Shown: positions 17,448 through 39,578, numbered from the stretch's first letter. The stretch is 39,578 nt of DNA from Acidobacteriota bacterium (GCA_031389065.1 JANMSG010000087.1:1-39578); one strand, 5' to 3'. Made by a program: numbers and translations. The notes: a model not told the origin generated them from the sequence alone.

Positions 17448-17470
17448 TTGATGCAAGGAAAATGTAGCCG

Positions 17471-17491
17471 CCAAGAATGTCTTGGGTTTTT
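17471..17491 (+). terminator. Rho-independent-terminator-like hairpin followed by a T-run
   Basis: CCAAGA (17471-17476), loop ATG, TCTTGG (17480-17485), then GTTTTTAT. It lies 24 nt after the GT2 stop. Confidence 0.45.
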
Positions 17492-22446: not shown

Positions 22447-23250
22447 ATGACATCCAGGATTACTGAATTAGTATTGGGTGGGCAAGGGCTGATTGGTTCT
22501 GAATTGGTTCACTCCTTACAGCTTGACGGACACAACGTAGTTTCACTTGATTTAAAAAACAACTGTGATTTGCGCCGCGTTGAGAATCACTCTTTTGAAG
22601 AATGTGATCGCGTTTGGTTTTTAGCTTGGGACACCGGCGGCGCAAAGTATATTGGAGCCATAGATAAACAGCATCAGATGTACAAACATAATTGCGAATT
22701 GTCTGCGCGCGTCTTTGATGCGCTGGCGCAAACTCGTCGCCCTTTTATGTTTGTGACTTCGCAGCTTGCAGGGCAACGAAACGCTTATGGTATGACAAAA
22801 CTCATGGCGGAACAATGGGCGTCGCAACTTGGCGGCAAAGTCGCGCGCCTGTGGAACACCTATGGCTGGGAGCATCCCGATACGCGCAGCCATGTTATCA
22901 CTGACCTTGTGCTTTCAGGTTTAACCGAAGGGAAAGTGAAAACGATGACAAACGGCAAAGAGCAGCGGCGATTTATCTACAAAGCCGATTGTATTGCCGC
23001 CTTGCGCAGGCTCTTTGATAGCGAGCAGGTGAGCGGTCACATCGCTGGGCCTGAATGGGTAAGCATCAAACGACTAGCCGATGAGATCGCACTTCAATTA
23101 AATATCGAAGTCGAGTTAGGGCAAAGCGAAGGCGAGGAAGTCCTGATAGACCCTGAGATATTGATACCCGATTGGCAACCTGCCGTGAGTTTGAGCGAAG
23201 GCATAGCGCTGGTGATAACCGAGGCTCGCCAGTACCTGAAGCAACGGTGA
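22447..23250 (+). CDS. Short extended-SDR NAD-dependent epimerase/reductase
   Basis: LVLGGQGLIGSEL (Rossmann), YGMTKLMAEQW (YxxxK), ARLWNTYG. Confidence 0.75.
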   Translation: MTSRITELVLGGQGLIGSELVHSLQLDGHNVVSLDLKNNCDLRRVENHSFEECDRVWFLAWDTGGAKYIGAIDKQHQMYKHNCELSARVFDALAQTRRPFMFVTSQLAGQRNAYGMTKLMAEQWASQLGGKVARLWNTYGWEHPDTRSHVITDLVLSGLTEGKVKTMTNGKEQRRFIYKADCIAALRRLFDSEQVSGHIAGPEWVSIKRLADEIALQLNIEVELGQSEGEEVLIDPEILIPDWQPAVSLSEGIALVITEARQYLKQR

Positions 23251-23274
23251 AGGATTTTGAGTGCGGAAGAAATA

Positions 23275-23991
23275 ATGATTAGCGCAGAGGTAGAAAATTC
23301 CTACAAACCAAAAACTATCTTTCAAAAGCTCAAGCACCTGACTGCCGAGTTGATCGGGCGCCAAAGAGCAAATCGAATCTCTGCGCCTTACTACAACTGG
23401 CTTGCGCGTCGGCAAGCCGAACAGCGATTGTTGACGCTGCCCGAATCCAATTTATTAATTAATCTCGGTTGTGGTTATAGCCCTCTGTCAGGCTGGGTTA
23501 ATGTGGACATCGCCCGAGGCTCGCAGGTTGATATTGTTTGGGATCTGCGAAAGGGCTTGCCTTTTGCGAAGGAGAGTTGTGCAGCGATTTTTAGCGAACA
23601 TGTTATCGAGCATCTTTCAAAAGAAGATGGCGAAAATTTATTGTGTGAGTGTTTCCGCATTTTGCAGCCCGAGGGGGTGTTGCGTCTATCCACTCCAGAT
23701 GCAGGAAAATTTTTGCGCTCGTATGCGAGCGATGGAGAATTTTTGCATCACCCGGAATTTCCCCAACCTATTGAAACGCCGCTCGACAGAATCAATCAAA
23801 TGATGCGCGAGTCCGGTCAACACCTTTGGGTTTATGATGTCGCGTCTTTGCAAGTGCTTTTGCGGCGCGTCGGATTCCACTCAACAACTGAGCAGAGCTT
23901 TGGCAAATCTAACCATCCGCAGATGCAGAGCATTGATAGCGCGGGGCGCGCTTTCGAGAGCTTATACATTGAAGCGGTAAAAGGCGTTTAA
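23275..23991 (+). CDS. Class I SAM-dependent methyltransferase (same architecture as 12714..13514)
   Basis: LINLGCGYSPLSGWVNVDI, FSEHVIEHLSKEDGENLLCECFRILQPEGVLRLSTPD. ATG at 23275 with GGAAG upstream is preferred to the TTG at 23257. Confidence 0.85.
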   Translation: MISAEVENSYKPKTIFQKLKHLTAELIGRQRANRISAPYYNWLARRQAEQRLLTLPESNLLINLGCGYSPLSGWVNVDIARGSQVDIVWDLRKGLPFAKESCAAIFSEHVIEHLSKEDGENLLCECFRILQPEGVLRLSTPDAGKFLRSYASDGEFLHHPEFPQPIETPLDRINQMMRESGQHLWVYDVASLQVLLRRVGFHSTTEQSFGKSNHPQMQSIDSAGRAFESLYIEAVKGV

Positions 23992-23995
23992 TTGG

Positions 23996-24955
23996 ATGTT
24001 GGAAACACCTGTTGCATTCTTAATCTTTAATCGTCCGGAGACCACCGCAAGAGTCTTTGCGGAGATTGCGCGGGCAAAGCCTAAGCGCTTACTGGTAGTG
24101 GCTGACGGACCACGTTCAGACGAAGAAGCAGAGAAATGTGCTGCTGCCAGAGCGATTATCGAAAGAGTAGATTGGGATTGTGACGTTTTGACCAATTTTT
24201 CTGAGGTGAATTTAGGGTGCGGGATTCGCCCGGCTACGGGAATCAATTGGGTTTTTGAAAACTGTGAAGAGGCGATCATCCTTGAAGACGACTGTTTACC
24301 TCACGCCACTTTTTTTCAGTATTGTCTGGAGTTGCTCAATCATTACCGTGAAGATGAACGGGTGATGGCAGTAAGTGGAAATAACTTTCAAAAGGGCAAA
24401 AAACGGGGAAGCCAAGGCTATTTCTTCTCTCGGTATCCACATTGCTGGGGATGGGCAACTTGGAAGAGAGCCTGGCAATACTATGATTATAAAATAGAGT
24501 TGTGGCAGCAAGTAAGAAATTCGACTTGGTTGGCAGATCTACTGGGAAGTCAACATAGCGCCAGCCATTGGGCTGAGGTATTAGACAAAGTATTTGATGG
24601 AGAAAAAAATGATGTATGGGATTATCAATGGATGTTTACTTGCTGGGTTCAACATGGATTGGCAATCATTCCAAACGTGAACTTGGTTTCTAATATCGGT
24701 TTTGGAAGTGACGCAACACACACAAAAGAAGATGCATATGAAATGGCTAATTTAGAAGTACAACCCATGGGATTTCCCTTGACACACCCTGCTTATATAA
24801 CTCCGGATTTTGAGGCAGATCGCTTTGCTTACAGTAATTATTTCGCTAAAGAAAGCTATCGCCTTGGCTTTCCTAAAATCGTGCTGAAGCGAATATTCAA
24901 TTTTCTCCCTGCTTCTTTTCAAGAAAAGGCACTTCAATTCAGATCAAGAAACTAA
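23996..24955 (+). CDS. GT-A glycosyltransferase, GNT-I (GT13)-like
   Basis: PVAFLIFNRPETTARVFAEI and AIILEDDCLPHATFFQYC resemble the GnT-I pattern (v-x-x-x-N-R-P ... E-D-D-l-x-x-x-P-D-F-F-x-Y). Confidence 0.6.
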   Translation: MLETPVAFLIFNRPETTARVFAEIARAKPKRLLVVADGPRSDEEAEKCAAARAIIERVDWDCDVLTNFSEVNLGCGIRPATGINWVFENCEEAIILEDDCLPHATFFQYCLELLNHYREDERVMAVSGNNFQKGKKRGSQGYFFSRYPHCWGWATWKRAWQYYDYKIELWQQVRNSTWLADLLGSQHSASHWAEVLDKVFDGEKNDVWDYQWMFTCWVQHGLAIIPNVNLVSNIGFGSDATHTKEDAYEMANLEVQPMGFPLTHPAYITPDFEADRFAYSNYFAKESYRLGFPKIVLKRIFNFLPASFQEKALQFRSRN

Positions 24956-25134
24956 TTCATCAAAATGATTACCCAACGGGCTGGATTTTTTTGCGGGATG
25001 GCGAACAGATGGCATGAAGTATCTGGCCGGCGAAAAGCTTATGAAAAGTATCCACAGTCTGAATTTCAGAAAGGGGCGCTGGCACATAGAGATTGCAAAT
25101 CTTATGGGTCGGGCAGATAACCGCGCGAGTGATT

Positions 25135-25986
25135 ATGATTAAGAATAGGGCAAAGACAATCCTCGAAATCTTGAATAGTATATTTCTTCAACCTCGAAAG
25201 AGCTTTAGGGTGTTGAGGGGGTTGCCATTGACTGCCCAGGGCTTTGACTATGGTCAAAGATGGCGATCTTCCTCTGAGGGACAAGGTGTATCTTCCGAGA
25301 TTACTAAGAAACCGTTATGCGATTCTTCAAATCCGATGAAGTCGTATTTTGATTCCCACACTGAGGGGAGAGGAATTTGGAAGTGGGCCCACTATCTGGA
25401 CATCTACCACCGTCACTTTAGTAAATTTATAGGGCGCGAAGTTCACGTCCTTGAAATAGGCGTATATAGTGGAGGAAGTCTCCAGATGTGGAAGGAGTAC
25501 TTCGGTCAGAATTGTCAGGTCTATGGTGTAGATATAGAAGAAGCATGCAGGGTATATGAAGATGATCGGACGAAAATTTTTGTGGGCGACCAGGAAGATC
25601 GCAACTTCTGGAAACTCATTAAAACACAAATTCCTAGGGTTGATATTCTAATTGATGATGGTGGTCACCAGCCTAACCAACAAATTGTCACACTAGAGGA
25701 AATGCTCCCGCACCTGCGTCCCGGAGGGTTTTATCTCTGCGAAGATGTGCATGGGAGCGTTAACCAGTTTCACTCTTATATCCATGGACTTGCTGCCCAT
25801 CTTCATTCATCTGTGCGGGGATCCAATGATGAGACGAAGGGAATCGCCTGTAAGCCAACGCCATTTCAAACGGATATTCATTCAATACATTTATATCCTT
25901 TTGTGACTCTCATTGAGAAAACCAATAGCCCGGTCATTCAATTCGTGGCTCCAAAACATGGAACGGAGTGGCAGCCATTTTTATAG
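25135..25986 (+). CDS. Class I SAM-dependent methyltransferase (CmcI / Methyltransf_24-like O-methyltransferase)
   Basis: GIWKWAHYLDIYHRHFSKFIGREVHVLEIGVYSGGSLQMWKEYFGQNCQVYGVDIEE ... ILIDDGGHQPNQQIVTLEEMLPHLRPGGFYLCEDVH. Start uncertain: the frame is open from 25093 (TTG), with in-frame ATGs at 25135 and 25336. The latter gives the usual family length. Confidence 0.75.
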   Translation: MIKNRAKTILEILNSIFLQPRKSFRVLRGLPLTAQGFDYGQRWRSSSEGQGVSSEITKKPLCDSSNPMKSYFDSHTEGRGIWKWAHYLDIYHRHFSKFIGREVHVLEIGVYSGGSLQMWKEYFGQNCQVYGVDIEEACRVYEDDRTKIFVGDQEDRNFWKLIKTQIPRVDILIDDGGHQPNQQIVTLEEMLPHLRPGGFYLCEDVHGSVNQFHSYIHGLAAHLHSSVRGSNDETKGIACKPTPFQTDIHSIHLYPFVTLIEKTNSPVIQFVAPKHGTEWQPFL

Positions 25987-26064
25987 GGATCTGGTGAACC
26001 CGATTTTTCGATCAGTGAAGGCCGCCTTTCGTTCAAACAATCCCTCCATACTCTGAGATTGCTT

Positions 26065-27114
26065 ATGGGGATAAATTTTGAACAGGTTCATCACTGTCCC
26101 ATATGCGGGCAAGAAGAATTTAGAGTAGAGCACGGAAATGTCAAAGACTATTTGTGTGAGGTGGAAGGCAGTTTCAGGTATGTAAGATGTAACAATTGCG
26201 AATTGGTTTTCCTTAACCCACGACCGATTGCCTCGGATTTAGCAAAATGTTACTTGGATTATCATACCCATCAGGCCGAGCCGCTTCCGAAAAGCTTTCT
26301 GGAACAATGGGGAAATCCTACCCGCTGGATTCGCGGCGGGATTCTGGCAAAAAAATACGGATATGCACACCTCGCGCCATCTTCTTTAGCAACCTTTGCT
26401 GCCTGCTTGCTGGATCTATTTCCGCCAATTAAGCAGAGAGCAAGGTGTGGTTTAGGGGTTGGTTCAGCTAGTGGTCTACCTCCTTTCACTGGCAACGGCC
26501 GAGCGCTTGATATTGGCACAGGAAGCGGAATCTATGCTGCAACGCTCAAGCGATTAGGTTGGGAAGTCTCAGGAGTAGATTTTGATGCTAAGGCGGCAGA
26601 AGTTGCTGCCGCTTGTCATAACATAACCATACATAGAGATCAATTAGATAGAATCGGTTTTAAAGACAGCCATTTCGATTTTATATCCATGTTTGATGTC
26701 ATCGAGCATCTGGCGAAACCCCTCCATGATTTGCGTGAATGTTACAGAATTTTACGTCCCGGTGGGCGAATCATGATAAGAACACCTAACTATGACAGCT
26801 TGACGAGAAAGCTGTTCGGCAGGTATTGGAGAGGCTTAGAGGCTCCGCGTCACCTGTGTCTTTTCAATGCTGATAATCTCAAATATGCTGTAGAAAGCGT
26901 AGGGTTTCGTATCCTGAATGTTGTCAGCCCCGACAAGGGAACTGCTTATTACTTTAACTCGAGTCGGCGGTTTCAACAAAAAGATAAAAATCATGAATTT
27001 GGCTCTCATTCTATCAATGCGCAAATCAGATCAACGAAATTGCGTATGAAAATATTGAGTGCTTTAGGGCAAACGGCAGGTGATGTCCTTCATTTAGAGG
27101 CCATACATCCGTAA
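26065..27114 (+). CDS. Class I SAM-dependent methyltransferase with an N-terminal Cys4 zinc-ribbon
   Basis: HHCPICGQEEF...RCNNCELVF, then ALDIGTGSGIYAATLKRLGWEVSGVDFD and FDFISMFDVIEHLAKPLHDLRECYRILRPGGRIMIRTPN. Confidence 0.85.
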   Translation: MGINFEQVHHCPICGQEEFRVEHGNVKDYLCEVEGSFRYVRCNNCELVFLNPRPIASDLAKCYLDYHTHQAEPLPKSFLEQWGNPTRWIRGGILAKKYGYAHLAPSSLATFAACLLDLFPPIKQRARCGLGVGSASGLPPFTGNGRALDIGTGSGIYAATLKRLGWEVSGVDFDAKAAEVAAACHNITIHRDQLDRIGFKDSHFDFISMFDVIEHLAKPLHDLRECYRILRPGGRIMIRTPNYDSLTRKLFGRYWRGLEAPRHLCLFNADNLKYAVESVGFRILNVVSPDKGTAYYFNSSRRFQQKDKNHEFGSHSINAQIRSTKLRMKILSALGQTAGDVLHLEAIHP

Positions 27115-27148
27115 CCGATTGAGGAAGACAAAAGTAGGTTACTAAGCT

Positions 27149-28132
27149 ATGGATCAGCATCCTTGCGTGCATGTAGTGATTCTGAATTGGAACGGATTGC
27201 ACGATACTTTAGAGTGTCTTTCTTCTCTAATCACTCAAGACTATCCGTCCGTCGTCATTCACGTAATTGATAACGGCTCAGATGAAAACGAACCTGAAAT
27301 TATCAGGCAGCACTATCCCGAGGTAAATGTTATTGAGTTGCCACAAAACTTCGGCTTTTGCGGCGGCAATAATGTGGGCATCAGGCAAGCAATAGATCGG
27401 GGAGCAGATTATGTAATGATATTGAACAATGACACGATTGTTCCTCCTACTCTAATACAAGATCTGGTGGAAACGATGAAAAGCTTATCCGATGTAGGCG
27501 CGATAAGCCCGTTAATTCTTCAGTACCCCGATAAAGAAAAGATTTGGTTTGCCGGTTCGATTTGGGAGCCGGAAACCGCAGGATTTAGACACCTCCTGTC
27601 GGGACATTCGCGCAAAGAAGTAAACAGCGTTGATCCTTATCTCACACAATATGCTTGTGGCTGCTGTCTTTTAGTCAGCGCTTCTGTTTTACAGGCGATT
27701 GGGCTTATGGATGAAAAATATTTTGCTTACTATGATGAAGCCGATTGGTGTTCGCGTATGTCGAAATTGGGACTGAACTGCTATGTTGTACCTAACGCAA
27801 CGCTTTATCATAAAATTTCTCGCTCAACACCCAGTATAATAGCGACCTACTTAATGTCCAGAAATCGCCTGATTTGGATGCGCGACTATCTTACATGGAA
27901 AGAAAGATGGAAGTCTTATCCGTATTTATTCAAGGAATCTGCTTGGAACTTAGTAAATACTCTCAAGAAAAATTCAATCGATAGCGCGATCTCAAAAGAT
28001 CACAGCAAGGCAATGTTGCAAGGCATTTTAGATTATTTACGACGCAAATTGGGAGGATGGCCAAACAATATTGAGAAGCTTGCCAAAAGCGCCAGCGGAA
28101 CCCATACCATTCACGTGCTTAAACAAGAATAG
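27149..28132 (+). CDS. Family 2 glycosyltransferase (WbbL/rhamnosyltransferase-like layout)
   Basis: VHVVILNWNGLHDTLECLSSLITQDYPSVVIHVIDNGSDENE, GFCGGNNVG, MILNNDT, YDEADWC. Confidence 0.88.
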   Translation: MDQHPCVHVVILNWNGLHDTLECLSSLITQDYPSVVIHVIDNGSDENEPEIIRQHYPEVNVIELPQNFGFCGGNNVGIRQAIDRGADYVMILNNDTIVPPTLIQDLVETMKSLSDVGAISPLILQYPDKEKIWFAGSIWEPETAGFRHLLSGHSRKEVNSVDPYLTQYACGCCLLVSASVLQAIGLMDEKYFAYYDEADWCSRMSKLGLNCYVVPNATLYHKISRSTPSIIATYLMSRNRLIWMRDYLTWKERWKSYPYLFKESAWNLVNTLKKNSIDSAISKDHSKAMLQGILDYLRRKLGGWPNNIEKLAKSASGTHTIHVLKQE

Positions 28133-28156
28133 TATGGCTTCTTGAATCGTGCATAA

Positions 28157-29041
28157 ATGAGCATGGAACGACCAGCAAAACTATCAATTATTACGCCTTC
28201 ATATAATCAGGGACAGTTTGTAGAAGAGACCATCCTCTCTGTTCTCAATCAGAATTACCCTCATCTTGAATACATCGTCGTTGATGGCGGAAGTCCTGAT
28301 AATAGCATTGAAACCATCAAGCGTTATGAAAACCGGCTTGCTTCCTGGAGCAGCCAAGCAGATCGCGGACAGGTTCATGCCATCAACAAAGGTTTAGCAC
28401 AGGCTACGGGTGAGATTGTCGCTTATCTCAACAGTGACGATGTCTATTTGCCGGGAGCCTTTGCCGCGGTCGCAGAATATTTTCGCGCCCATCCGGATTG
28501 CCAATGGCTCTGCGGCGACACGGTTTTATTCGGTGAAGAGCAGGCGACCGAATTGATTCGCGCAAGGGTTCCCAAGTCGGCGGCGCATTGTCTTTCGTGG
28601 GCTTACACAGCTCCGCAGCCCGCCATGTTTTGGCAGCGCGAATTGCTCCGCACAGGTTTCGACGAACAATGGCGCTACTGTTTCGATCACGATCTGTATG
28701 TCCGTTTATTATTGGACGGCTATCAATGCCATTACTTGCCCTTACCCTTAGCCGCCTATCGTTTGCACGGCAGCAGCAAGACGGTTGCCGAATCCGGCGG
28801 CTTTGACAAAGAGTTTGACGCGATTGCCGAGCATTACGAAGCGAAACTGCACGGCGCGGATCGTCGTTGGAGCGTGGCCACAAGATTTCTGCGCCGCTCC
28901 TATGAATTGAGCAAGATGGGCAAGACTCGCGAAGCCAGAACCTGGCTGTTGAAGGCTTTGCTCAAACACCCCGAAGGCTTGCGACGACGTCCGTTTTGGG
29001 GATGTTTGCGAATGGTTTTGAAGGGCGCTATCTCTCACTAA
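28157..29041 (+). CDS. Family 2 glycosyltransferase
   Basis: LSIITPSYNQGQFVEETILSVLNQNYPHLEYIVVDGGSPDNSIETIKRY and YLNSDDVY. Confidence 0.88.
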   Translation: MSMERPAKLSIITPSYNQGQFVEETILSVLNQNYPHLEYIVVDGGSPDNSIETIKRYENRLASWSSQADRGQVHAINKGLAQATGEIVAYLNSDDVYLPGAFAAVAEYFRAHPDCQWLCGDTVLFGEEQATELIRARVPKSAAHCLSWAYTAPQPAMFWQRELLRTGFDEQWRYCFDHDLYVRLLLDGYQCHYLPLPLAAYRLHGSSKTVAESGGFDKEFDAIAEHYEAKLHGADRRWSVATRFLRRSYELSKMGKTREARTWLLKALLKHPEGLRRRPFWGCLRMVLKGAISH

Positions 29042-29113
29042 AACATTGAGCAGCAGAATCCAAAACGAAACAGTATGCATTAGGGGCACTCCCATCACTC
29101 GGGAATAGACTGC

Positions 29114-30547
29114 ATGGTTTTTAATTCCATAACCTTTATTATTTTCTTCGCAATCGTTTTGTTTCTTCACAACCTGCCGTTACCTTGGAAGGTAAAAAAG
29201 TCAAATCTGCTGATTGCGAGCTACATATTTTATGCCGCGTGGAATCCGCCGTTTGTCGTCTTATTGTGGCTGACAACAGTCGTTGATTGGTTTGTCGCCC
29301 AAACCATCGCGAAAACGGCAAATCTCTCCAAGAGGCGAATGCTGCTTTTGATTAGCTTGGCGGGCAATCTCGGGTTGTTAGGGTATTTCAAATACGGAAC
29401 CTTTATTCTGGAAAGCTTCGTTGCGACGTTACATTACTTCGGGGTCAACTATCACCCCGCCGCTCCCAATATCATATTGCCGATTGGCATTTCCTTTTAT
29501 ACCTTCGTGACGCTTTCCTACACCATAGACGTTTATCGAAACGAGATTGCGCCTTGCAAATCTTTTCTCGATTTTTCTTTGTTGGTGACCTTCTTTCCGC
29601 ATTTGGTGGCGGGCCCCATTCTTCGCGCTGCAGACTTTCTTCCGCAATGTGTAAAGCCTCACGTTGCCAACTCGCAACAACTGGGGTGGGGTTTTTCACT
29701 GGTGGTATTCGGACTCTTCGAGAAAGTCGTCTTAGCTGACACGCTGATGGCTCCGGTTGCCGACAAAATTTTTATCGCCGCAAACGGATTGGGATTCTTG
29801 CAGGCTTGGATTGGAACTTTTGCATTCGCTTCGCAGATTTATTTAGACTTTGACGGCTATTCGATAACCGCTATCGGCGTGGCGATGTGTTTGGGCTTTG
29901 TGTTTCCCGACAATTTCCGTTTTCCCTATGCCGCTGTCGGGTTTTCGGATTTCTGGCGGCGCTGGCATATCTCGCTTTCCAGTTGGCTGCGCGATTATCT
30001 CTACGTTTCGTTGGGCGGAAATCGTCAAGGCGAAATCAGAACTTATGTGAATCTAATGTTGACGATGTTGATTGGCGGATTGTGGCACGGCGCAGCTTGG
30101 CGTTTCGTGGTGTGGGGCGCTTTGCACGGGATCTATCTGGTTGTTGAACGCTTGTTAAAAAACATTTTTTCAGAGGCGGCAATTTTCAAGCATAAATTTG
30201 CTCAGGTCTTAATGGCGTTGCTGACTTTCCTTCTGGTGTGTATTACCTGGGTTTTCTTCCGCGCAGATCATTTGTCGGACGCCTGGCGAATGGCTTTGTC
30301 CATGTTCGGCTTTGGCAAGGCGAGCAAATCATTTTATGAATTGGGTGTTGATACGGGAGAGATTCGCTCTGTGCTCTTGGTGATGCTGGCGTTGTTTGTC
30401 ATGCATTGGAAATTGCGCAATTCGTCGCTTGAAGGGGCGGCAGAAAAAATTCCTTTGTGGGCGCGGTCGGTCGTGCTGGCAGGGTTGCTTTGGTTTATTG
30501 TCATCGTTCAGGGAGACAATCGTGCTTTCATTTACTTCCAATTCTAA
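29114..30547 (+). CDS. MBOAT-family membrane O-acyltransferase (AlgI/DltB-like)
   Basis: Polytopic protein. FWRRWHISLSSWLRDYLYVSLGGNR and GGLWHGAAWRFVVWGALHG (the MBOAT His). Confidence 0.9.
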   Translation: MVFNSITFIIFFAIVLFLHNLPLPWKVKKSNLLIASYIFYAAWNPPFVVLLWLTTVVDWFVAQTIAKTANLSKRRMLLLISLAGNLGLLGYFKYGTFILESFVATLHYFGVNYHPAAPNIILPIGISFYTFVTLSYTIDVYRNEIAPCKSFLDFSLLVTFFPHLVAGPILRAADFLPQCVKPHVANSQQLGWGFSLVVFGLFEKVVLADTLMAPVADKIFIAANGLGFLQAWIGTFAFASQIYLDFDGYSITAIGVAMCLGFVFPDNFRFPYAAVGFSDFWRRWHISLSSWLRDYLYVSLGGNRQGEIRTYVNLMLTMLIGGLWHGAAWRFVVWGALHGIYLVVERLLKNIFSEAAIFKHKFAQVLMALLTFLLVCITWVFFRADHLSDAWRMALSMFGFGKASKSFYELGVDTGEIRSVLLVMLALFVMHWKLRNSSLEGAAEKIPLWARSVVLAGLLWFIVIVQGDNRAFIYFQF

Positions 30548-31598
30548 TGACAGAATTCCCTCTGCTGATTGGGGGAAGGTTTGGATTCTCGTACTTGTTC
30601 TGTTTGCCTTGACGCTTGTCGTGTGGGAAGGGTTTTGGCGTTGGCAAGGGTTTCACAGAGTCCCGAAAGAACAAGATGTAAAACATTGGGTATTGATGAG
30701 AAAAGAGGCTTCACAATTGGGCGAAAAAGCTGCTGTTCTCATAGGGAGTTCGCGCATCATGACTGATATTGATGCGGATGTTTTTGCTGCTACAGCAGGC
30801 GTACAACCCATCCAACTCGGCATTTCAGGCGCTTCCCCTATATCGGTTTTGCAGCATCTTGCCGATGATAAATCTTTTACGGGAACGGTCATTTGCGATT
30901 TTCACGAAGTCTTTGTTTACACCTCTGAAGCTTCACAGGCAGTGAGACTCAGCCCGGATGATTTTTTGAAAGAATACGAAGGGCGCTCCTTTCTTGAGGA
31001 CTTGCTGCCGAAACGGCTTGAGAGTAGCGGCAAGGCTTTGTTGAAAGAGACCTTCGTTTTTCAAATGCAAGAACTCTCTCTTTCTAACGTGCTACACAAT
31101 ATGGTTAGGGGGAAACTCCCGCCGAAGCCCGAAGACCCCTATATGATTATCAAAGACGGAAAGATTTCCAATTTGAAAAATATTAAGGACAGCGACAAAG
31201 ATTTGCTGACAAAACACTTTGAAGACCTGACCATGAACTTTATCAATAAAGGTTCGATGTCTTGGGATAAACTGCCCAAGATAATCGCAAAAATTGAACG
31301 AGCGGTTGAAAAAATTCAAGGACGAGGCGGCAAAGTCACTCTTGTTTGCCTGCCAGTGAGCGGAAAACTCTGGGAGATTAACGAACAGTATTTTCCCAAA
31401 AAAACATACTGGGATTTTCTAGCCGCGAATACAAAGGCTAGGACGATTCATTTCAAAGATTACCCGTCATTGGCTGCATACGAATGTGTTGACGGTTCGC
31501 ATTTAGGCGGCAATGATGTGAAGACGTTTACGAAAGCGCTTATTGAAATCTTGTACGACGATAAAAAAGTGGTTGAGCAGAGGACAAAGATAGAATGA
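30522..31598 (+). CDS. Membrane-anchored SGNH/DltD-like partner of the MBOAT acyltransferase
   Basis: GTG at 30522 lies 5 nt after GGGAGA (26-nt overlap with the MBOAT gene). One N-terminal TM (VWILVLVLFALTLVVW). LIGSSRIM is a Ser-nucleophile block similar to the DltD G-S-S-E motif. C-terminal CVDGSHLGGND is a D-x-x-H block. The track's ATG at 30396 would overlap the MBOAT gene by 152 nt. Confidence 0.6.
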   Translation: MLSFTSNSNDRIPSADWGKVWILVLVLFALTLVVWEGFWRWQGFHRVPKEQDVKHWVLMRKEASQLGEKAAVLIGSSRIMTDIDADVFAATAGVQPIQLGISGASPISVLQHLADDKSFTGTVICDFHEVFVYTSEASQAVRLSPDDFLKEYEGRSFLEDLLPKRLESSGKALLKETFVFQMQELSLSNVLHNMVRGKLPPKPEDPYMIIKDGKISNLKNIKDSDKDLLTKHFEDLTMNFINKGSMSWDKLPKIIAKIERAVEKIQGRGGKVTLVCLPVSGKLWEINEQYFPKKTYWDFLAANTKARTIHFKDYPSLAAYECVDGSHLGGNDVKTFTKALIEILYDDKKVVEQRTKIE

Positions 31599-31696
31599 CA
31601 AAAGCACTGCTTACGGGAATCACCCGACAGGGCGGCTCCTATCTTGCCGAATTCCTATTGGCAAAAGCTACGAGGTTTTCGGCATCGTGCGGCGTT
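31595..31696 (+). pseudogene. gmd: 5' remnant of a GDP-mannose 4,6-dehydratase gene (frameshifted duplicate of 33077-33179)
   Basis: Hand alignment shows 4 substitutions and a 1-nt deletion (aaaagctacg versus aaaaggctacg) over 103 nt, about 95% identity. Its ATG overlaps the upstream stop (ATGA at 31595-31598). It reads [42 protein letters not shown], versus [34 protein letters not shown] in the intact gene. Confidence 0.85.
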
Positions 31697-31715
31697 GCTC
31701 AAGAAGATATAAAAA

Positions 31716-32933
31716 ATGATTGAAAGAAGAACCAGAAGTGGGAAAACGATATGGTTCATATTAACTATCGGCGCTTCCATAGGGTTTGTTTCATCTACAA
31801 TAGTAAAATTGGTTAATAGATTACCTTATCCTCCTAACTCAGATCAGGATGGATATCTTGCTGCCGGAGCAAACTTTGCAGAGTACTTCACCTTTATGCA
31901 GCGAGCTCCTCTCTATAGTATGTGGGTAGGTATTATCTATTTTTTTAGTGGTAAAAATCTGGAGACAACCTTCTTTGCCGAGAAGATAATTTCTATTTTG
32001 CTCTTCAGTATGTTGATGATCTGGCTGGGATGGAGATTGTTTGACAAATGGGCTGGACTGTTAATGTTTGTTTGGGTTTGGAATTGCAAATACTTACTTT
32101 TCGAGACAAATGGCTCGCACACATTGGCTGCTTGTCTGTTTATATTAAGTATCCTCGGTCTCTTTTTGCCTGCTAACATCAGACTTCCTGCCGCTATGCT
32201 GATGCTGTTCTTTTCTGCCATGTGCAGGTCGGAAATGTGGGTAGTATTTATAGGAGTGGCTGGTTGTCTTACCATAAAAAGATTCAGAGATTGGCGCAAC
32301 AATCAGGAAATCGCACCGTCCTCAGCGCGATTACAAGTTCCATACTGGATTGCAGCGGTCTTGATTGGAGGCGGATTTTATTTTACGTCGGCAGTGAATA
32401 TCTCTGCGCCTGAACCTGAGCGTCTATCCATTGCATTTGAGCAGAATTTTGCGATCAATTATATCGAAAGAAAAGGGCTGGCTCATCAATACAAGAATCC
32501 TTGGGTTGAATGGCATTCTATATGGTCAACGGCTCTACCAGATGCGGAAACCCCGTTTGAAGGTTTGCGTAAATACCCTGGAGAAATACTTGAGCATGGG
32601 ATCTATAATTTGCGGCTATTTGTTTATGCCTTTCCAGCTATCATTTTAGGGTTTGATTATCCAATATTAATGGGCTTTGCCTTTGGTTTCTGGGCGTTAT
32701 CTTTTGTAGCTTTTAATCATCCTTACCGCACGAAGCAAATTGATGGAGAGCTAAAAGGACTGCTGACAATATGGTTTGTGGCGATTCTCTTATTGATTCC
32801 GATCAGTATTGTGTTACGTGTGGCAGCCCGTTATTACATTCAATTGATGCCAGTTCAAATGATCATAGCTCTTGCCGTGGGGCGAATGATTCTTTCACGC
32901 TTTCCTAATTTGCAACGGCCATTCTCGCTATGA
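31716..32933 (+). CDS. Polytopic membrane protein, GT-C-like glycosyltransferase or polymerase candidate
   Basis: About 10 hydrophobic segments. The first loop has PPNSDQDGYLAAGANF (an acidic D-x-D-like motif, as in GT-C enzymes). GC is much lower than its neighbours: lines 31801 and 32041 have 20 and 21 G+C of 60, versus 32 of 60 at line 33301 in gmd. Confidence 0.55.
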   Translation: MIERRTRSGKTIWFILTIGASIGFVSSTIVKLVNRLPYPPNSDQDGYLAAGANFAEYFTFMQRAPLYSMWVGIIYFFSGKNLETTFFAEKIISILLFSMLMIWLGWRLFDKWAGLLMFVWVWNCKYLLFETNGSHTLAACLFILSILGLFLPANIRLPAAMLMLFFSAMCRSEMWVVFIGVAGCLTIKRFRDWRNNQEIAPSSARLQVPYWIAAVLIGGGFYFTSAVNISAPEPERLSIAFEQNFAINYIERKGLAHQYKNPWVEWHSIWSTALPDAETPFEGLRKYPGEILEHGIYNLRLFVYAFPAIILGFDYPILMGFAFGFWALSFVAFNHPYRTKQIDGELKGLLTIWFVAILLLIPISIVLRVAARYYIQLMPVQMIIALAVGRMILSRFPNLQRPFSL

Positions 32934-33076
32934 TTTTTGCACCTTTCATCTATGTATTTTCGAACGATGAAGCAACTCATACAAAGATGCCTTTATTGCT
33001 TGGTGTTGCGAAGCACATGACAAAGGATCACTTGTTACCAATGTGAAACTTGGAAGAATCAACAGGTAATTTGAAT

Positions 33077-34123
33077 ATGACAAAAGCACTAATTACGGGA
33101 ATCACCGGACAGGACGGCTCCTATCTTGCCGAATTCCTATTGGCAAAAGGCTACGAGGTTTTCGGCATCGTGCGGCGTTCCTCTTCCTTTAACACCGACC
33201 GCATCGAACACATTTATCAAGATCCGCACGAACCGAACGTAAAACTCAGGATGTTTTATGGCGACCTCAACGACGCCAGTTCACTCAATAAAATTCTGCG
33301 CGATTTGCAGCCCGATGAGATCTATAATTTGGGCGCGCAATCGCACGTTCGCGTGTCGTTTGATGTGCCGGAATACACGGCCGAAATTACCGCGCTTGGC
33401 GCTGTGCGCCTGCTCGAAGCAATCCGCGATTTAGGCTTGAAGCCGAAATTTTATCAAGCGTCGAGTTCGGAATTGTACGGCAAAGTTTTAGAAACTCCGC
33501 AAACCGAAACGACCCCTTTCTATCCGCGCTCGCCATATGCCTGCGCCAAAGCCTACGCCTACCACATCACTGTCAATTACAGAGAGAGTTACGACCTCTT
33601 TGCCTGCAACGGCATACTGTTCAATCATGAATCGGAGCGTCGGGGCGAAACCTTCGTAACGCGTAAAATCACTCGCGCCGCGACGCGTATCAAAGTTGGT
33701 CTGCAAGACAAGCTCTACCTGGGCAATCTGGATGCAAAACGCGATTGGGGACACGCGAAAGATTACATCGAAGCGATGTGGCTGATCTTACAGCAAGAGA
33801 TGGCGGACGATTACGTGATTGCGACGGGCGAGCAACATTCGGTGCAGGAGTTTGTCGAAGAGACCTTCGGCTTGCTCGAATTGGACTGGCAGGAGTACGT
33901 CAGGATTGACCCGCGTTATTTTCGTCCGGCAGAGGTCGAGACCTTGCTCGGAGATGCTTCAAAAGCGCGGCGCGTTCTGGGTTGGGAGCCGAAGATTTCC
34001 TTCAAAGAGTTGGTTCGCCTGATGGTCGAATCCGACATGAAAATCGCCCAACGTGAACGCCTCTTGACGGATGCGCCCGAAGAGTTCGCAGTTAATAAAC
34101 AGCATGAAAATTATCAGATATGA
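33077..34123 (+). CDS. gmd: GDP-mannose 4,6-dehydratase
   Basis: [47 protein letters not shown]..., [46 protein letters not shown]. This is a near-textbook Gmd. ATG at 33077 is preferred over the TTG at 33050. Confidence 0.95.
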
Positions 34124-34154
34124 GGTTTGCAGTGAATCAATATCAGGGGAATGA

Positions 34155-35111
<957 letters not shown>

Positions 35112-35236: not shown

Positions 35237-36256
35237 ATGCAAACTCAAGATGAAAATATGCTCAATTTTATTCGTGTCTCATTGGTCATTCCGGTTCGCG
35301 ATGAAGCCGCAAGCGTTCGAGTCTTGCTCACAAGCATAGAGGCGCAAACTTTTCAGCCCGATGAAATTTTATTCGTGGATGGCGGAAGTAAAGACCACAC
35401 CGTGAAGTTGTTGCGTGAAGCTGATCCACAAAACCCACGTTTGCGCGTCATTGAAGCCTTGGAAGCCTCGCCGGGCAAAGGTCGCAACCTAGGTATTGCC
35501 GAGGCGCGCAATGAATGGATCGCTTTGACGGACGCCGGTATTCATCTCGAACCCTCCTGGCTTGCAAACCTGATGGCTGCGGCAGAGCGTGATTCATCTG
35601 TGAAGGTTGTTTATGGCAACTATGAGCCGGTGACGGAAACCATATTTGAAAAGTGCGCCGCCTTGACTTATGTTCCGGCAAAGCAAAAAAGAGATGACGG
35701 ATTGATGCGCGGACCCTCAACGGCTTCGATGTTGATTCATCGGGATGTGTGGCAAGCGGTCGGCGGTTTCCCTGACAGTCGCGCCGCCGAAGATTTAATT
35801 TTCTTTGAGCGCATAGGCGAACAGAAAATCAAAACGGCATGGTCGCCAAAGGCTACAGTGTGGTGGCAACTTCGCCCGACCTTTGCCGCGACCTTTCGCA
35901 AATTCACTCTTTATTCCAAACACAATGTCTGGATAGGGCGCGAGTGGGATTGGCATTACGCCATCGCACGGCAATACGCTGTGTGGGGTATCTGCATTCT
36001 TCTCGCTGTGTTATTCAGATTTTGGTGGGTAGCGCTGCTGCCGCTTTTGGGTTTTCTCCTTCGCGTCGCAAAGACTATGTGGGTGAGACAAGCAGATAAA
36101 AATTGGTTCGAGATATTCAATCCAATTAAATTTCTTATCGTAGGAATGATTTTGTTGACCATAGATGCGGCGACTTTTTCGGGCTGGCTGCAGGCTTATT
36201 TGCAGCGTGGTTCGCGTCCTGCAGCATCTTCTTTTCATAATCAAAGTGCGCCTTGA
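35237..36256 (+). CDS. Family 2 glycosyltransferase with C-terminal transmembrane helices (polyprenyl-phosphate glycosyltransferase-like layout)
   Basis: VSLVIPVRDEAASVRVLLTSIEAQTFQPDEILFVDGGSKDHT and ALTDAG. The C-terminal ~90 aa have 2-3 hydrophobic helices (YAVWGICILLAVLFRFWWVALLPLLGFLL; FLIVGMILLTIDAATFSGWL). Confidence 0.8.
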   Translation: MQTQDENMLNFIRVSLVIPVRDEAASVRVLLTSIEAQTFQPDEILFVDGGSKDHTVKLLREADPQNPRLRVIEALEASPGKGRNLGIAEARNEWIALTDAGIHLEPSWLANLMAAAERDSSVKVVYGNYEPVTETIFEKCAALTYVPAKQKRDDGLMRGPSTASMLIHRDVWQAVGGFPDSRAAEDLIFFERIGEQKIKTAWSPKATVWWQLRPTFAATFRKFTLYSKHNVWIGREWDWHYAIARQYAVWGICILLAVLFRFWWVALLPLLGFLLRVAKTMWVRQADKNWFEIFNPIKFLIVGMILLTIDAATFSGWLQAYLQRGSRPAASSFHNQSAP

Positions 36257-37509
36257 TGATGGCGAAGAAAAAAATGCGATCTCTTTATATCTGCTATTTC
36301 GGACTGCGCGAACCGCTCGTGCAAACACAGGTTCTCACCTACTTGCGCCAATTGAGCGAGGAGGGAATTGAGATGAATTTGCTCACCTTTGAGCCGGATT
36401 TTCTGACTTCCTGGTCGCAAGAAGAGAAGCAAGATTGGCAAAAGCGACTCGCTTTGGACGGTATCAATTGGTTTGCTCTGCCTTATCACAAACGCCCATC
36501 CGCGCCGGCTACGGTTTACGATATTTTTACGGGAGCGCGTTTCGCGGCAAAGCTTATTCGTCAGCATTCGATAGATGTTTTGCACGCGCGCAGTCACATC
36601 CCTCTGGCTATGGGGTTACTGGCGCAAGCGTGGACTGATTGCCGGTTGATTTTTGATCTTCGCGGTTTGATGGCTGAGGAATACGTTGACGCAGGGATTT
36701 GGAAATTAGATTCTGTGGTCTTTCGCGCCATAAAACGATTAGAAAAAACCGGACTTCGCAAAGCCGATCAAGTTGTCGTATTGACGAATCGAATGCGCGA
36801 CTGGCTCGTCGAACAAGGTTTGGCAGGCGCAGATAAAATCGAAGTGATTCCGTGTTGCGTGGATTTTTCTCATTTTACCGATGATTGGATTAAAGATGTG
36901 GGTCAAAGGGAGAGCCGTTTTGAACTTGTATATGCGGGTTCTGTGACAGGCCGTTATCTTTTAGAGGAAATGGGGCGATTTTTTTTAGCCCTGCGAGCCA
37001 AAAGACCGGGTGCTTTTTTTCGAGTATTGACACGCGTTTCAGCGCAAGAGGTGGCTGATAGGCTCACCAATATTGGGTTGCAGCAATCCGATTTTTCGAT
37101 TGAGTATGTGCCGCCGGGAGATGTTTATTTGTGTCTTCGGAAAGCCAGCCTCGGGATTTTCTTTCTCAAACCTGCATTTTCACAAATTGCCGCCTCGCCA
37201 ACCAAAATTCCTGAGTATCTGGCCGCGGGATTGCCTATAGTTTGCAATGCAGGAACAGGCGACTTGGACAAGCTGTTGGAAGATAACTCGGTCGGAATTC
37301 TATTAAAAGAGTTCAGCTTAAACTCATACAGTGAGGCAGTGGAAAGAGTTCTCTCCCTTATGGATGACGATAGTTTATCTGAGAGATGTATAGAGGTTGC
37401 TCACAGGCACTTTGACTTGAACTTTGTCGGCGGAGCAGGCTATTGTAACGTCTATCATAATATTCAAAAAAACCTTTCGCCGGAAGCCACATATACAGCA
37501 ATATCATGA
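36256..37509 (+). CDS. Family 4 (GT-B, group 1) glycosyltransferase
   Basis: SLYICYFGLREPLVQTQVL, VIPCCVDFSHF and SPTKIPEYLAAGLPIVCNAGTGD (E-x7-E region). TGATG overlap with the upstream gene and ATGA overlap with the downstream gene. Confidence 0.85.
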   Translation: MMAKKKMRSLYICYFGLREPLVQTQVLTYLRQLSEEGIEMNLLTFEPDFLTSWSQEEKQDWQKRLALDGINWFALPYHKRPSAPATVYDIFTGARFAAKLIRQHSIDVLHARSHIPLAMGLLAQAWTDCRLIFDLRGLMAEEYVDAGIWKLDSVVFRAIKRLEKTGLRKADQVVVLTNRMRDWLVEQGLAGADKIEVIPCCVDFSHFTDDWIKDVGQRESRFELVYAGSVTGRYLLEEMGRFFLALRAKRPGAFFRVLTRVSAQEVADRLTNIGLQQSDFSIEYVPPGDVYLCLRKASLGIFFLKPAFSQIAASPTKIPEYLAAGLPIVCNAGTGDLDKLLEDNSVGILLKEFSLNSYSEAVERVLSLMDDDSLSERCIEVAHRHFDLNFVGGAGYCNVYHNIQKNLSPEATYTAIS

Positions 37510-38828
37510 ACGATTCAGGCATTCCTTTTAGTATTTTATTCTTCATTCTGCTGGCAGTTGGGGGAGTCCTGGCGATTAATTCGAGCCGAAATAATCGCCA
37601 CACGCTGATTTTTCAAACGAAGATTTTTTTGCAGGCCTTTGCTCTACGCTTTGCCTTTTCCCTGGCGCTTTATGGATTCGGTTTTTCAAAGGTAGTTGGT
37701 GATGAAGATTCCAGCGGATGGTTGATCGGCTCTTTTTTTTATGGACAATGGTCAAAGCAAAATGTAGGCATTTTAGGCTTGCCGGGTGTTTTACTGGGCG
37801 CTTTTGATGGCAATCATTTTGGCTACTCTTACCTGGTTGGCGCGTTGTTTTATTTGACAGGCGTTCCTGCGCGACTTCCGGCAGCCGTATTGAATGGTTT
37901 CTTTGGCGCTCTAACCGTCATCGTTGCTTATCGGGCTACGGCTACTTTGTTCTCTCATGATGTGGCAAAGCGAGTGGCCTGGATGACTTGTCTTTTCCCC
38001 TCGATGATTATCTGGTCGGCGCAAACATTAAAAGAGCCGATAACAATATTTATTGAAATAGTAGCTTTGTATGGCTGTTTACGCCTTAGAAAATATGGGT
38101 TTTCCGTCAGAGATATTCTCTTGTGTGCCATCGCCTTGGTTGTGGTGATTCCGTTTCGATTCTATGCAGCGTATATAATCGCTGCTGCCGTGGCTCTTTC
38201 TCTAATTCTGCCACAGATTGGAAAGCGCAAATTTACCTTTGTCTCAGCTGTTGTATTGGCGATATTGGTTGTCCCTGTAGTGTTGATGTCCGGGGTGTTG
38301 GCGCAACACGAAAAACGGTTTGAAAGTTTCGACCTTAAATATGTTGAGAAGTTTAAGAAAGATGTGTCTGTAGGTAGTTTAGGCACAGGTTCAGGGGTCG
38401 AATCAAACTATGATTTGGAAACCTCAAGCGGTTTTACCATGGCAATCTTAGTGGGGGGCGCACATTTGCTTTTAGCTCCATTCCCCTGGCAGTTAGGCGG
38501 GGGCAGTTTGCGAATGTTGCTGACGTTGCCCGAATTGCTTGCCTGGTGGGCGCTCTTCTTTGTTGGTGTGGTGCCGGGATTTTGGTACACGGTGCGGAAT
38601 CGCTTCGGTGATGTTATGCCGATTTTAATCTTCCTTTTCGGATTGGGACTGCTCTATAGCTTGATGTTTGGCAATGTCGGACTCATTTTCAGACAGCGCG
38701 CCCAGCTTTTGCCCTGGCTCTTTATTTTCGCAGCTGTAGGCTTAGAACTGCGACAGATGAAACGATTGACCGCACGTAAACCGAACAATGATATGAAACC
38801 CGGTGAAGTTGCACCCTTGACTTCATAA
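37506..38828 (+). CDS. Polytopic membrane protein, GT-C (PMT_2/ArnT-like) glycosyltransferase or polymerase candidate
   Basis: More than 10 hydrophobic segments. The first external loop has KVVGDEDSSGWLIG (acidic motif). AYRATATLFSHDVAKRVAWMTCLFPSMIIWSAQTLKEP resembles the GT-C core. Confidence 0.55.
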   Translation: MNDSGIPFSILFFILLAVGGVLAINSSRNNRHTLIFQTKIFLQAFALRFAFSLALYGFGFSKVVGDEDSSGWLIGSFFYGQWSKQNVGILGLPGVLLGAFDGNHFGYSYLVGALFYLTGVPARLPAAVLNGFFGALTVIVAYRATATLFSHDVAKRVAWMTCLFPSMIIWSAQTLKEPITIFIEIVALYGCLRLRKYGFSVRDILLCAIALVVVIPFRFYAAYIIAAAVALSLILPQIGKRKFTFVSAVVLAILVVPVVLMSGVLAQHEKRFESFDLKYVEKFKKDVSVGSLGTGSGVESNYDLETSSGFTMAILVGGAHLLLAPFPWQLGGGSLRMLLTLPELLAWWALFFVGVVPGFWYTVRNRFGDVMPILIFLFGLGLLYSLMFGNVGLIFRQRAQLLPWLFIFAAVGLELRQMKRLTARKPNNDMKPGEVAPLTS

Positions 38829-38889
38829 AGCCTGCCGGAGCGCAGAATAAAAATTGCTCTCAGCACAAATTATCGCCTTTTATTAAACA

Positions 38890-39578
38890 ATGCGCCTTCT
38901 CGCTATCGTTCCAAGTCTGTTTGATACCTCACCTGGGCAGAGATTTCGTGTAGAGCAATGGGAACCTCTGCTTCGCAAGCAAGGCGTGGAAATTGATTAT
39001 CTTCCATTCGAGAGTGCAGAACTGCATACGCTTCTCTACAAGCCCGGAAATATGTTTGGTAAGGTGAAGCTGATTTTTCAAGCGATAGTCCAACGCATCC
39101 ACGCCCTGCGCGCGCTTGAAAATTACGACGCAGTTTATGTTTTTCGCGAAGCTGCCTTGTTAGGCCCACCGATATTCGAGCGCTGGCTACAACGCGCAGG
39201 CTTGCCGATGATATTTGATTTTGATGATGCGATTTTTGTCTCTTATGTCAGTCCATCGAACGGCTACTTGAGCTATCTGAAATTTCCCACGAAGACACGA
39301 ACGATTTGCCGGCTGGCAACGCACGTCATGGCGGGCAATCCTTACTTAGCCGATTATGCGCTTCAGGTGAACGATCAAGTGACCATCGTGCCGACGACGA
39401 TTGACACGGAAAAATATACGCTTGAGCCGAAACCGCAATCGGACATTGCCATAATCGGTTGGAGCGGCAGTTACAGCACGGTTCAACATCTGGATACCTT
39501 GCGTGGCGCTCTGCAAAGATTAGCCAGGCAAGAGCGCTTCAAACTGCGAGTCATTGGTACGTCTCAATATGAACTCGA
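38890..39578 (+). CDS. Family 4-like glycosyltransferase, N-terminal 229 aa (runs off the right edge)
   Basis: Own translation from ATG 38890: MRLLAIVPSLFDTSPGQRFRVEQWEPLLRKQGVEIDYLPFES...YVFREAALLGPPIFERWLQRAGLPMIFDFDDAIF...IIGWSGSYSTVQHLDTLRGALQRLARQERFKLRVIG. This looks like a GT-B N-domain. It is absent from the ORF track because there is no stop in the window. Confidence 0.7.
   Translation, partial: MRLLAIVPSLFDTSPGQRFRVEQWEPLLRKQGVEIDYLPFESAELHTLLYKPGNMFGKVKLIFQAIVQRIHALRALENYDAVYVFREAALLGPPIFERWLQRAGLPMIFDFDDAIFVSYVSPSNGYLSYLKFPTKTRTICRLATHVMAGNPYLADYALQVNDQVTIVPTTIDTEKYTLEPKPQSDIAIIGWSGSYSTVQHLDTLRGALQRLARQERFKLRVIGTSQYEL

Follow-up and report, generated by a model that had tools for sequence, protein, structure and literature searches.

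A duplicated 5' end of gmd as a probable recombination scar in the polysaccharide gene cluster of an uncultured acidobacterium

In a study of DNA integration in E. coli, the commonest outcome was an insert flanked by duplications of 109-950 bp of the homologous segment (PMC3240628). In the O-antigen clusters of Yersinia, gene remnants lie at the junctions of modules, an example being the tyv remnant in the Abe module of Y. pseudotuberculosis (PMC5399914). Here, we describe a gene remnant in a 39,578-nt contig of an Acidobacteriota bacterium (GCA_031389065.1 JANMSG010000087.1:1-39578), which is of metagenome source; this whole stretch is called the window below, and all coordinates are positions in it. 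The 5' end of gmd, the gene for GDP-mannose 4,6-dehydratase, occurs there twice, once as a short stub and once, 1.48 kb downstream, as the start of the intact gene, and the two copies enclose a gene for an uncharacterised membrane protein. An earlier note, made from the sequence of the window, had read this arrangement as the scar of an insertion or cassette exchange. A comparison with metagenome loci and contigs (L001-L048) and with a collection of 5.8 billion proteins indicates that this reading is essentially right and refines it: the repeat is probably a recombination scar that added a 1.38-kb piece to a polysaccharide cluster, and the window would be a recombinant of two pre-existing cluster forms. 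The features of the scar are as follows.

31595 to 31700, plus strand: left repeat copy, a remnant of the gmd 5' end (codons 1-35) with a 1-nt deletion after 31667 and 5 derived substitutions.
31595 to 31723, plus strand: remnant open reading frame (ORF) of 42 codons, starting in an ATGA overlap (31595-31598) with the stop codon of the upstream SGNH-like gene and ending 5 nt past the ATG of the membrane gene.
31697 to 31701, no strand: novel joint, at which the similarity to gmd ends; the BLASTN alignment to the relative L045 stops at 31696.
31716 to 32933, plus strand: enclosed gene, whose 405-aa product is a multi-pass membrane protein that belongs to an uncharacterised family and is predicted to adopt a GT-C-like fold.
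32934 to 33076, plus strand: spacer of 143 nt that separates the membrane gene from gmd; its 142-nt counterpart in the relative L043 is 83% identical.
33077 to 33183, plus strand: right repeat copy, the first 107 nt of intact gmd.
33077 to 34123, plus strand: intact GDP-mannose 4,6-dehydratase gene, gmd (TIGR01472, 539 bits, cut-off 415; Pfam GDP_Man_Dehyd, 491 bits).

Whole-window self-BLASTN, a check that the earlier note had proposed, aligned 31595-31700 with 33077-33183 over 107 columns (94.4% identity, 5 mismatches, one 1-nt gap, E 9e-41) and returned this as the only internal repeat of note in the 39.6-kb window. Its core, 31595-31696 against 33077-33179, contains the 4 substitutions (columns 15, 16, 31, and 38) and the 1-nt deletion (one G missing after 31667) that the note had counted over 103 nt. 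Extension to 31700/33183 adds a fifth mismatch, and the last four bases, GCTC versus CCTC, can be counted either with the repeat or outside it. A 35-nt stretch is identical between both copies, and no similarity between them was detected upstream of the ATG.

The right gmd is a full-length member of TIGR01472/PF16363 with its N-terminal GxxGxxG motif intact ([10 protein letters not shown]). In the left copy this Rossmann motif reads TGITRQGGSY, and the copy, with codons 1-35, is not a member of the GDP-mannose 4,6-dehydratase family. The earlier note was correct about this motif change but had ascribed the loss of function to the G-to-R change and the deletion; truncation after 35 codons suffices by itself, so the left copy was dead from the start, and the G-to-R change and the frameshift are later decay. 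The ATGA at 31595-31598 and the 42-codon frame were also found as described, the latter stopping with the TGA at 31721-31723, just beyond the ATG of the membrane gene. With the deleted G restored, the frame would instead stop with the TGA at 31717-31719, in an ATGA overlap with the ATG at 31716; 4-base overlaps of adjacent genes are frequent in the cluster. Since the stub ORF overlaps its neighbors at both ends, it is plausible that ribosomes are handed from the SGNH-like gene via the stub to the membrane gene by termination-reinitiation.

The site without the insert is found in relatives. L045, L046, and L047, metagenome contigs reached through a gmd protein search, run collinear with the window, one gene after another, between 18592 (L045/L046) and 38828, and the corresponding proteins are 60-93% identical. 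BLASTN blocks between the window and L045 cover 22465-24968, 25135-28856, 29113-31696, 33074-35101, and 35264-39572, about 17 kb on both sides of the insert, and L045 9998-10103 aligns twice, once with each copy of the repeat. Window 31697-33073 has no counterpart in L045, L046, or L047. In these three contigs the stop of the SGNH-like gene and the start of gmd form the same ATGA as in the window, and the 3' end of the window SGNH-like gene aligns to L045/L047 right up to this ATGA; therefore, gmd once directly followed the SGNH-like gene, as the earlier note had suggested, and the comparison of the orthologous locus that it had called for gives gmd abutting the SGNH-like gene. Neither L045-L047 nor the window has a gene between the second GT2 gene and the MBOAT gene further upstream, so the window corresponds to the L045 order plus the insert. 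The order MBOAT-SGNH-gmd-fcl, with no intervening gene, is also found in L005, L044, and L006. It should be noted that the junction between the SGNH-like gene and gmd takes three forms in these relatives: the ATGA of L045-L047, a 28-nt spacer in L005 (10721-10748) and L044, and a 311-nt spacer in L006 (11075-11385). This boundary thus appears to have been remodelled more than once.

The arrangement from which the insert could have come is represented by L043, a 1,486-nt contig that carries the closest gmd (96% protein identity; the gmd proteins of L043, L005, L006, and L045 are 92-96% identical to that of the window). L043 aligns with window 32737-34223 at 88.6% nucleotide identity and spans the 3' end of the membrane gene (last 197 nt, 87%), the 142-nt spacer (83%), gmd (90%), and the start of fcl (92%). 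Because L043 carries all three, the junction membrane gene-spacer-gmd exists in a second lineage, and the spacer arrived together with the membrane gene. This arrangement fits an incoming piece that paired with gmd, which is what the earlier note had in mind when it proposed gmd as the homology anchor. The spacer has no similarity elsewhere in the window or in L001-L042 (BLASTN and TBLASTX gave short matches at chance level only), and the idea that it is a remnant of another gene was discarded on these grounds; L043 does share it. A promoter, a terminator, or a structured RNA in the spacer was likewise discarded, with counts at or below shuffle expectation and a fold z-score of -0.1.

The order of events was read from site differences counted over 107 nt of repeat, with five or six relatives as outgroups. 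Between the left and the right copy 5 sites differ, between L043 and the right copy 10, and between L043 and the left copy 13. Compared with L045, L047, L005, L044, or L006, either copy differs at 20-29 sites, and for the right copy the distance to all relatives other than L043 is 18 or more. Derived states at positions 13, 21, and 30 are common to both copies and missing from L043 and all outgroups. Given these shared derived states and the fewer differences, the copies parted after the split between the window and L043 lineages. The junction between the spacer and gmd is shared with L043 and the SGNH-ATGA-gmd junction with L045/L047, so both types of junction are older than the duplication, and the only new junction is that at 31697-31701. 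In the simplest reading, the window would be a recombinant of two closely related genomes that were nearly identical at the gmd 5' end and had different cluster forms.

All six differences between the copies are derived in the left copy, while the right copy has kept the state of the outgroups, with ambiguity at position 15. For the substitutions in the stub, the ratio of codon positions 1+2 to position 3 is 4:1, compared with 17:89 in gmd between the window and L043 (Fisher p = 0.004), and the left copy has drifted free of coding constraint. The divergence of the stub is ~0.047 substitutions per site (4.7%; Poisson interval 0.015-0.11), and for the window and L043, the neutral divergence of each lineage comes to about 0.10 from the spacer (0.096) and about 0.16 from third positions. 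The event is perhaps a third to half as old as the split between the window and L043, within a wide interval. The word 'recent' in the earlier note was an overstatement, the remnant carrying 5 substitutions and an indel in 106 nt.

A possible course of the event can be outlined. The cluster before it would have read ...GT2-GT2-MBOAT-SGNH-like-gmd-fcl-GT2-GT4-membrane protein. The source would have been a closely related genome that already read membrane gene-spacer-gmd, and the piece gained would consist of a 15 nt leader, the GT-C-like membrane-protein gene, and the 143-nt spacer. On one side, the incoming DNA would have paired homologously with the resident gmd; on the other, an illegitimate join would have been made after nt 103-107 of the resident gmd. 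The substrate may have been a linear fragment, joined by homology-facilitated illegitimate recombination (HFIR), or a circular one, closed by joining gmd nt ~107 to the membrane-gene leader and integrated by a single crossover. Both routes would leave the first ~107 nt of gmd on either side of the insert, and the repeat would start exactly at the ATG because homology between the SGNH-like-gmd and spacer-gmd forms begins there. The right copy would have remained the working gmd, and the left copy would have been a dead 35-codon stub from the outset that later drifted. Homologous pairing in gmd combined with one illegitimate join is the most likely route; this route and the identity of the recipient are what we infer from the arrangement. 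After one mismatch, the alignment to the gmd side pairs CTC at 31698-31700 with gmd nt 105-107, which may be microhomology. No inverted repeats were found at the ends of the insert (31701, 33076), no transposase or integrase families among the 30 window proteins scanned with Pfam, and, in the window, no tRNAs and no Rfam matches at gathering score. Insertion of a transposon or an insertion sequence (IS) was rejected on the lack of inverted repeats, on the lack of a transposase, the one gene of the insert coding for a membrane protein that has no transposase domain, and on the 106-107-nt duplication, far too long for a target-site duplication. An RNA element or a tRNA as the target was rejected on the lack of Rfam matches and tRNAs.

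The base composition adds little. The insert has 40.8% G+C (GC), which averages 24.5 G+C per 60-nt line (from 18 to 31), and gmd has 51.4% (mean 30.7). The insert is indeed more AT-rich than gmd, as the earlier note had said, but the contrast is smaller than the 20-21 versus 32 per line given there: about 10 points, not ~19. In GC at third codon positions (GC3), gmd and fcl stand +2.0 and +1.4 standard deviations (SD) at the high end of the window genes. Among same-length windows, 1/167 is as low in GC as the insert, and the L002 homolog of the membrane gene is likewise the lowest-GC gene of its own cluster. Composition as a proof of foreign origin was set aside as weak: it is compatible with such an origin. 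The lowest-GC stretch of the window is 17448-18537, the only region as AT-rich as the insert, where a gene for an FkbM-type methyltransferase (17758-18537, GC 0.372) follows a 310-nt gap free of genes. This stretch may be another acquired cassette.

An identical final sequence, with the same single novel joint, would result if the roles of resident and incomer were exchanged. The resident would then have read membrane gene-spacer-gmd-fcl, as L043 does, and would have received ...MBOAT-SGNH-like-gmd(1-107) from an L045-type relative, with homologous pairing upstream and the illegitimate join 15 nt before the membrane gene. The MBOAT and SGNH-like genes are a portable pair in many unrelated contexts, and the nearest relative of the SGNH-like protein (78% identity in L005/L044, 60% in L045) differs from that of its flanks, suggesting a separate ancestry of this module. 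We nevertheless consider this exchange of roles unlikely and rank it below the gain of the membrane gene because on either side of the insert, over ~17 kb, the window has the gene order of L045, including the absence of a gene between GT2 and MBOAT. In addition, a 1.4-kb insertion is the smaller change, and the resident form that the exchange would need is seen only as the short L043 fragment. The homolog of the membrane gene lies between two GT2 genes in L002, before a PMT_2 gene in L006 and L048, and after fcl in L041, a planctomycete metagenome-assembled genome (MAG), and is absent from the stretch examined in L045; in 5/5 relatives with context (L002, L003, L006, L041, and L048) it is never directly upstream of gmd. 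Its place after the second GT2 gene in L006 and L002 would suit an internal rearrangement, in which an L006-like ancestor duplicated membrane gene-MBOAT-SGNH-gmd(1-107) in tandem, which would put gmd nt 107 beside the upstream sequence of the membrane gene, and lost the redundant copies in two deletions. Such a history is very improbable: it takes three events, among which would be a deletion with its end no more than a few nt from the gmd ATG, and the spacer between GT2 and MBOAT (29042-29113), read beside those of the relatives, bears no trace of an excision. Moreover, the window membrane protein is only 41% identical to its L006 homolog, compared with 61-92% for the flanking proteins, and thus the window gene is not the vertical counterpart of the L006 gene; L043 also shows that the junction of spacer and gmd predates the split of the two copies.

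The insertion could also be older than the split between the window and L043, with the stub later overwritten by gene conversion from the intact gmd. L043 already has the junction membrane gene-spacer-gmd, the Poisson interval of the stub divergence just reaches the per-lineage divergence of the spacer, and conversion could take place between direct repeats that lie 1.5 kb from each other and have 35 identical nt at their core. However, concerted evolution of this kind needs an extra event, and L043 runs unbroken through the gmd 5' end, from which the behavior of assemblies points, weakly, to no second copy sharing a 31-mer in that sample; we regard it as slightly less credible even than the exchange of roles. 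That two strains were joined in a chimeric contig, or that a repeat was wrongly resolved, would be conceivable for a metagenome source but is the least probable explanation of all. Two sequencing runs yielded Logan contigs that match the window at 100% identity. Of these, L007 and L008 extend through GT2-MBOAT-SGNH-like into the stub, of which they contain 64 nt from its start with the variants of the left copy, and L001 corresponds to 31638-33144 and includes both the joint of the stub to the membrane gene and the junction of the spacer to gmd, with right-copy variants in the latter. All three contigs end within the 35-nt identical core, as would be expected of short-k assembly, and by themselves they leave an alternative path through the graph possible. 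Such a path would, however, imply a circle of 1.48 kb and a gmd whose GxxGxxG motif contains Arg and Gly; both arrangement-specific junctions lie inside these independent contigs, and the copies differ at 6 positions, which is not compatible with a collapsed or doubled repeat. The arrangement was therefore taken as real.

Several observations weigh against the gain of the membrane gene by recombination in gmd, which remains the reading we prefer. The GC and GC3 of the enclosed gene are each only 1.5 SD below those of the window genes, and the compositional check that the earlier note had suggested gave an unremarkable tetranucleotide distance for the insert (z = +1.0, rank 26 of 167). The short Logan contigs break in the 35-nt core, so that linkage across it comes from the 39.6-kb contig itself. 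No genome closer than ~88% nucleotide identity was available, and the actual recipient and donor are not among the relatives compared: in the protein searches, identities dropped from 100% straight to 77% for the SGNH-like protein and to 49% for the membrane protein, and scans of genome and metagenome collections returned distant loci only. Finally, L043, with its 1,486 nt, starts inside the membrane gene, and its upstream sequence could carry the same scar; in that case the event would be older than the split, and gene conversion would have to account for how similar the copies are.

The enclosed membrane protein has no Pfam, NCBIfam, or PDB sequence match. It has 27 homologs in the protein collection, the closest at 49% identity, and a profile search gave 383 cluster representatives at E <= 0.001. 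None of the 27 family members matches a GT-C family in Pfam at E <= 1, and the family profile matches no PDB chain at E <= 10. An assignment to a family at the sequence level was abandoned after these searches and a Pfam scan of ten distant representatives were all negative; the ten sampled relatives have 516-643 aa. The AlphaFold2 (AF2) model of the protein has a predicted local distance difference test score (pLDDT) of 91 and a predicted template modelling score (pTM) of 0.90, and its 12 best Foldseek matches in the PDB are all GT-C proteins (ArnT, AglB, STT3, ALG3, Pmt1/2, and EmbB; probability up to 0.99), with weak scores (E 0.01-0.6, template modelling (TM) score 0.29-0.48). The label 'GT-C-like', used in the earlier note, is reasonable for the predicted fold and does not denote family membership. 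All 22 invariant residues of the family are kept in the window protein, and Asp43, in the motif SDQDGYL, is nearly invariant in the family. Differences from L043 in the membrane gene (6, 3, and 16 at codon positions 1, 2, and 3) are concentrated at third positions. Because of the invariant residues kept and this concentration, the gene is likely functional. A 397-aa gene in the variable slot of L005 was rejected as a homolog (hhalign probability 0.5%).

The genes that flank the scar are an O-acetylation pair upstream and the partner of gmd downstream.

29114 to 30547, plus strand: gene for an MBOAT-family membrane O-acyltransferase, the upstream half of the O-acetylation pair (Pfam MBOAT, 104.9 bits).
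30522 to 31598, plus strand: SGNH-like partner gene (358 aa), whose TGA stop overlaps the ATG of the remnant as ATGA.
34161 to 35111, plus strand: GDP-L-fucose synthase-like gene, fcl (NF047922, 300 bits, below the cut-off of 500; Pfam Epimerase).

The MBOAT gene is 80-86% identical to those of L005, L006, and L045. For the SGNH-like gene, the start at 30522 is that called in the public collection, a 400-aa ORF from 30396 being an over-extension. The MBOAT and SGNH-like genes overlap by 26 nt in the window and in its closest relatives. The SGNH-like protein has no Pfam or NCBIfam match; its AF2 model (pLDDT 78) finds its matches (probability >= 0.97, E about 1e-3, target-normalised TM 0.5-0.57) among SGNH/GDSL hydrolases, one of which is PatB, a peptidoglycan O-acetyltransferase, and Ser77, Asp324, and His327 are invariant, so that this second label of the earlier note, too, holds at the level of the fold. 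The SGNH-like gene adjoins an MBOAT gene in >20 metagenome loci of otherwise different content (L009-L035), which suggests that the two form a portable O-acetylation module. For the genes at 23996, 27149, and 36253, L045 is the nearest relative, and the SGNH-like protein is, as given above, 78% identical to L005/L044 and 60% to L045; this mosaic ancestry suggests further, older exchanges of the O-acetylation module. Downstream, fcl is 87-90% identical to its relatives, and the downstream flank is common to all cluster forms.

Pfam and NCBIfam scans of the window proteins describe a single long polysaccharide cluster with all genes on the same strand, and the best named relatives of gmd in the protein search are Acidobacteria (Blastocatellia, Pyrinomonadaceae). 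Export is represented by Wza- and Wzc-like genes, and further genes code for an ABC-2 transporter, a Wzy_C-type protein, methyltransferases, a formyltransferase, an aminotransferase, several GT2 and GT4 enzymes, and one GT61 enzyme. The local order is GT2 (27149), GT2 (28157), MBOAT (29114), SGNH-like (30522), gmd stub, membrane gene (31716), gmd, and fcl, followed by GT2 (35237), GT4 (36253), and a gene for a 440-aa membrane protein (37506). The frame GT2 ... GT2-GT4-440-aa membrane protein is constant across the relatives, among which three modules shift place or are missing: MBOAT + SGNH-like, gmd-fcl, and the membrane gene, at times with a PMT_2 gene. The 440-aa multi-pass protein (37506-38828) has no Pfam or NCBIfam match and carries the motif GDEDSSGW behind the first of its predicted hydrophobic segments (residues 3-28); its gene comes directly after GT2-GT4 in all related loci reaching that far, from Acidobacteria to the planctomycete MAG, except L003, which has one additional gene in between. 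The GT2 gene downstream of fcl (35237-36256), present also in L045 although L045 has no enclosed membrane gene, has predicted C-terminal transmembrane segments, a layout known from polyprenyl-phosphate sugar synthases; its product could provide a lipid-linked donor for GT-C-like proteins. At the other end of the window, the sole other self-match (E 7e-4) is an imperfect 45-nt palindrome at 1327-1371, directly after a gene for Fe/Mn superoxide dismutase (663-1322), and is probably a terminator hairpin.

In its consequence, the event probably changed the polysaccharide: O-acetylation and GDP-fucose synthesis would have been kept and a periplasmic-type membrane enzyme gained, with which the strain would modify its polysaccharide by periplasmic glycosylation in addition to O-acetylation and fucose. 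For this one polysaccharide-changing recombination, which concerns an uncultured soil-type acidobacterium, public metagenomes yielded the product together with the empty site and the source-type arrangement, and gmd can serve as a handle for recombination. The cluster family may be described as a conserved GT2...GT2-GT4-membrane-protein frame decorated by portable modules (MBOAT + SGNH-like, gmd-fcl, and the GT-C-like membrane enzyme), and the small family of the membrane protein (383 representatives, no curated model) is a candidate for a new GT-C-like enzyme. A bolder idea, which we think unlikely, is that the membrane gene, the spacer, and the first ~100 nt of gmd form a self-targeting cassette that inserts by single crossover before the gmd of related clusters and keeps the stub ORF as a ribosome relay. 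If this were true, an uncharacterised GT-C-like enzyme would be added without deletion, and conserved pathway genes would act as portable 'attachment sites' for the modular evolution of polysaccharides in Acidobacteria.

ArnT, PglB/AglB/STT3, PMT, ALG3, and EmbB are GT-C enzymes that use polyprenyl-phosphate-linked sugars. The enclosed protein resembles them in being multi-pass, in its fold matches, and in the position of Asp43 near the start of the first extramembrane loop; its gene, too, lies in a polysaccharide cluster, and a homolog stands beside a PMT_2-family gene in two relatives. It differs from them in having no sequence match to Pfam or PDB and weak fold scores (E >= 0.01, TM <= 0.48) and, with its 405 aa, in being shorter than most and lacking a large soluble domain. 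Upstream of the scar, the MBOAT protein with a single-anchor, predicted-SGNH partner recalls the O-acetylation systems PatA/PatB and AlgI/AlgJ-AlgX, including the invariant Ser, Asp, and His, but the SGNH-like protein of the window matches no curated family, and its role as a partner here is predicted. As for the scar itself, a truncated sugar-pathway gene marks one end of the recombination, as the tyv remnant does in Yersinia, where conserved pathway genes also serve as homologous ends (PMC5399914). Unlike that remnant, the one in the window duplicates a gene that is intact 1.48 kb away, has no IS, and accompanies a gene that was added rather than replaced, in a phylum and a cluster family that are uncharacterised. 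With HFIR and the single crossover of a circular fragment, the window shares one-sided homology and a direct duplication of the homologous segment, with no transposase, inverted repeat, or short target-site duplication. It differs in that the event is natural, fixed, and reconstructed from comparative sequence, and linear and circular substrates would give the same product. The scar thus represents a known kind of event, with no new mechanism, and one that is cleanly documented.

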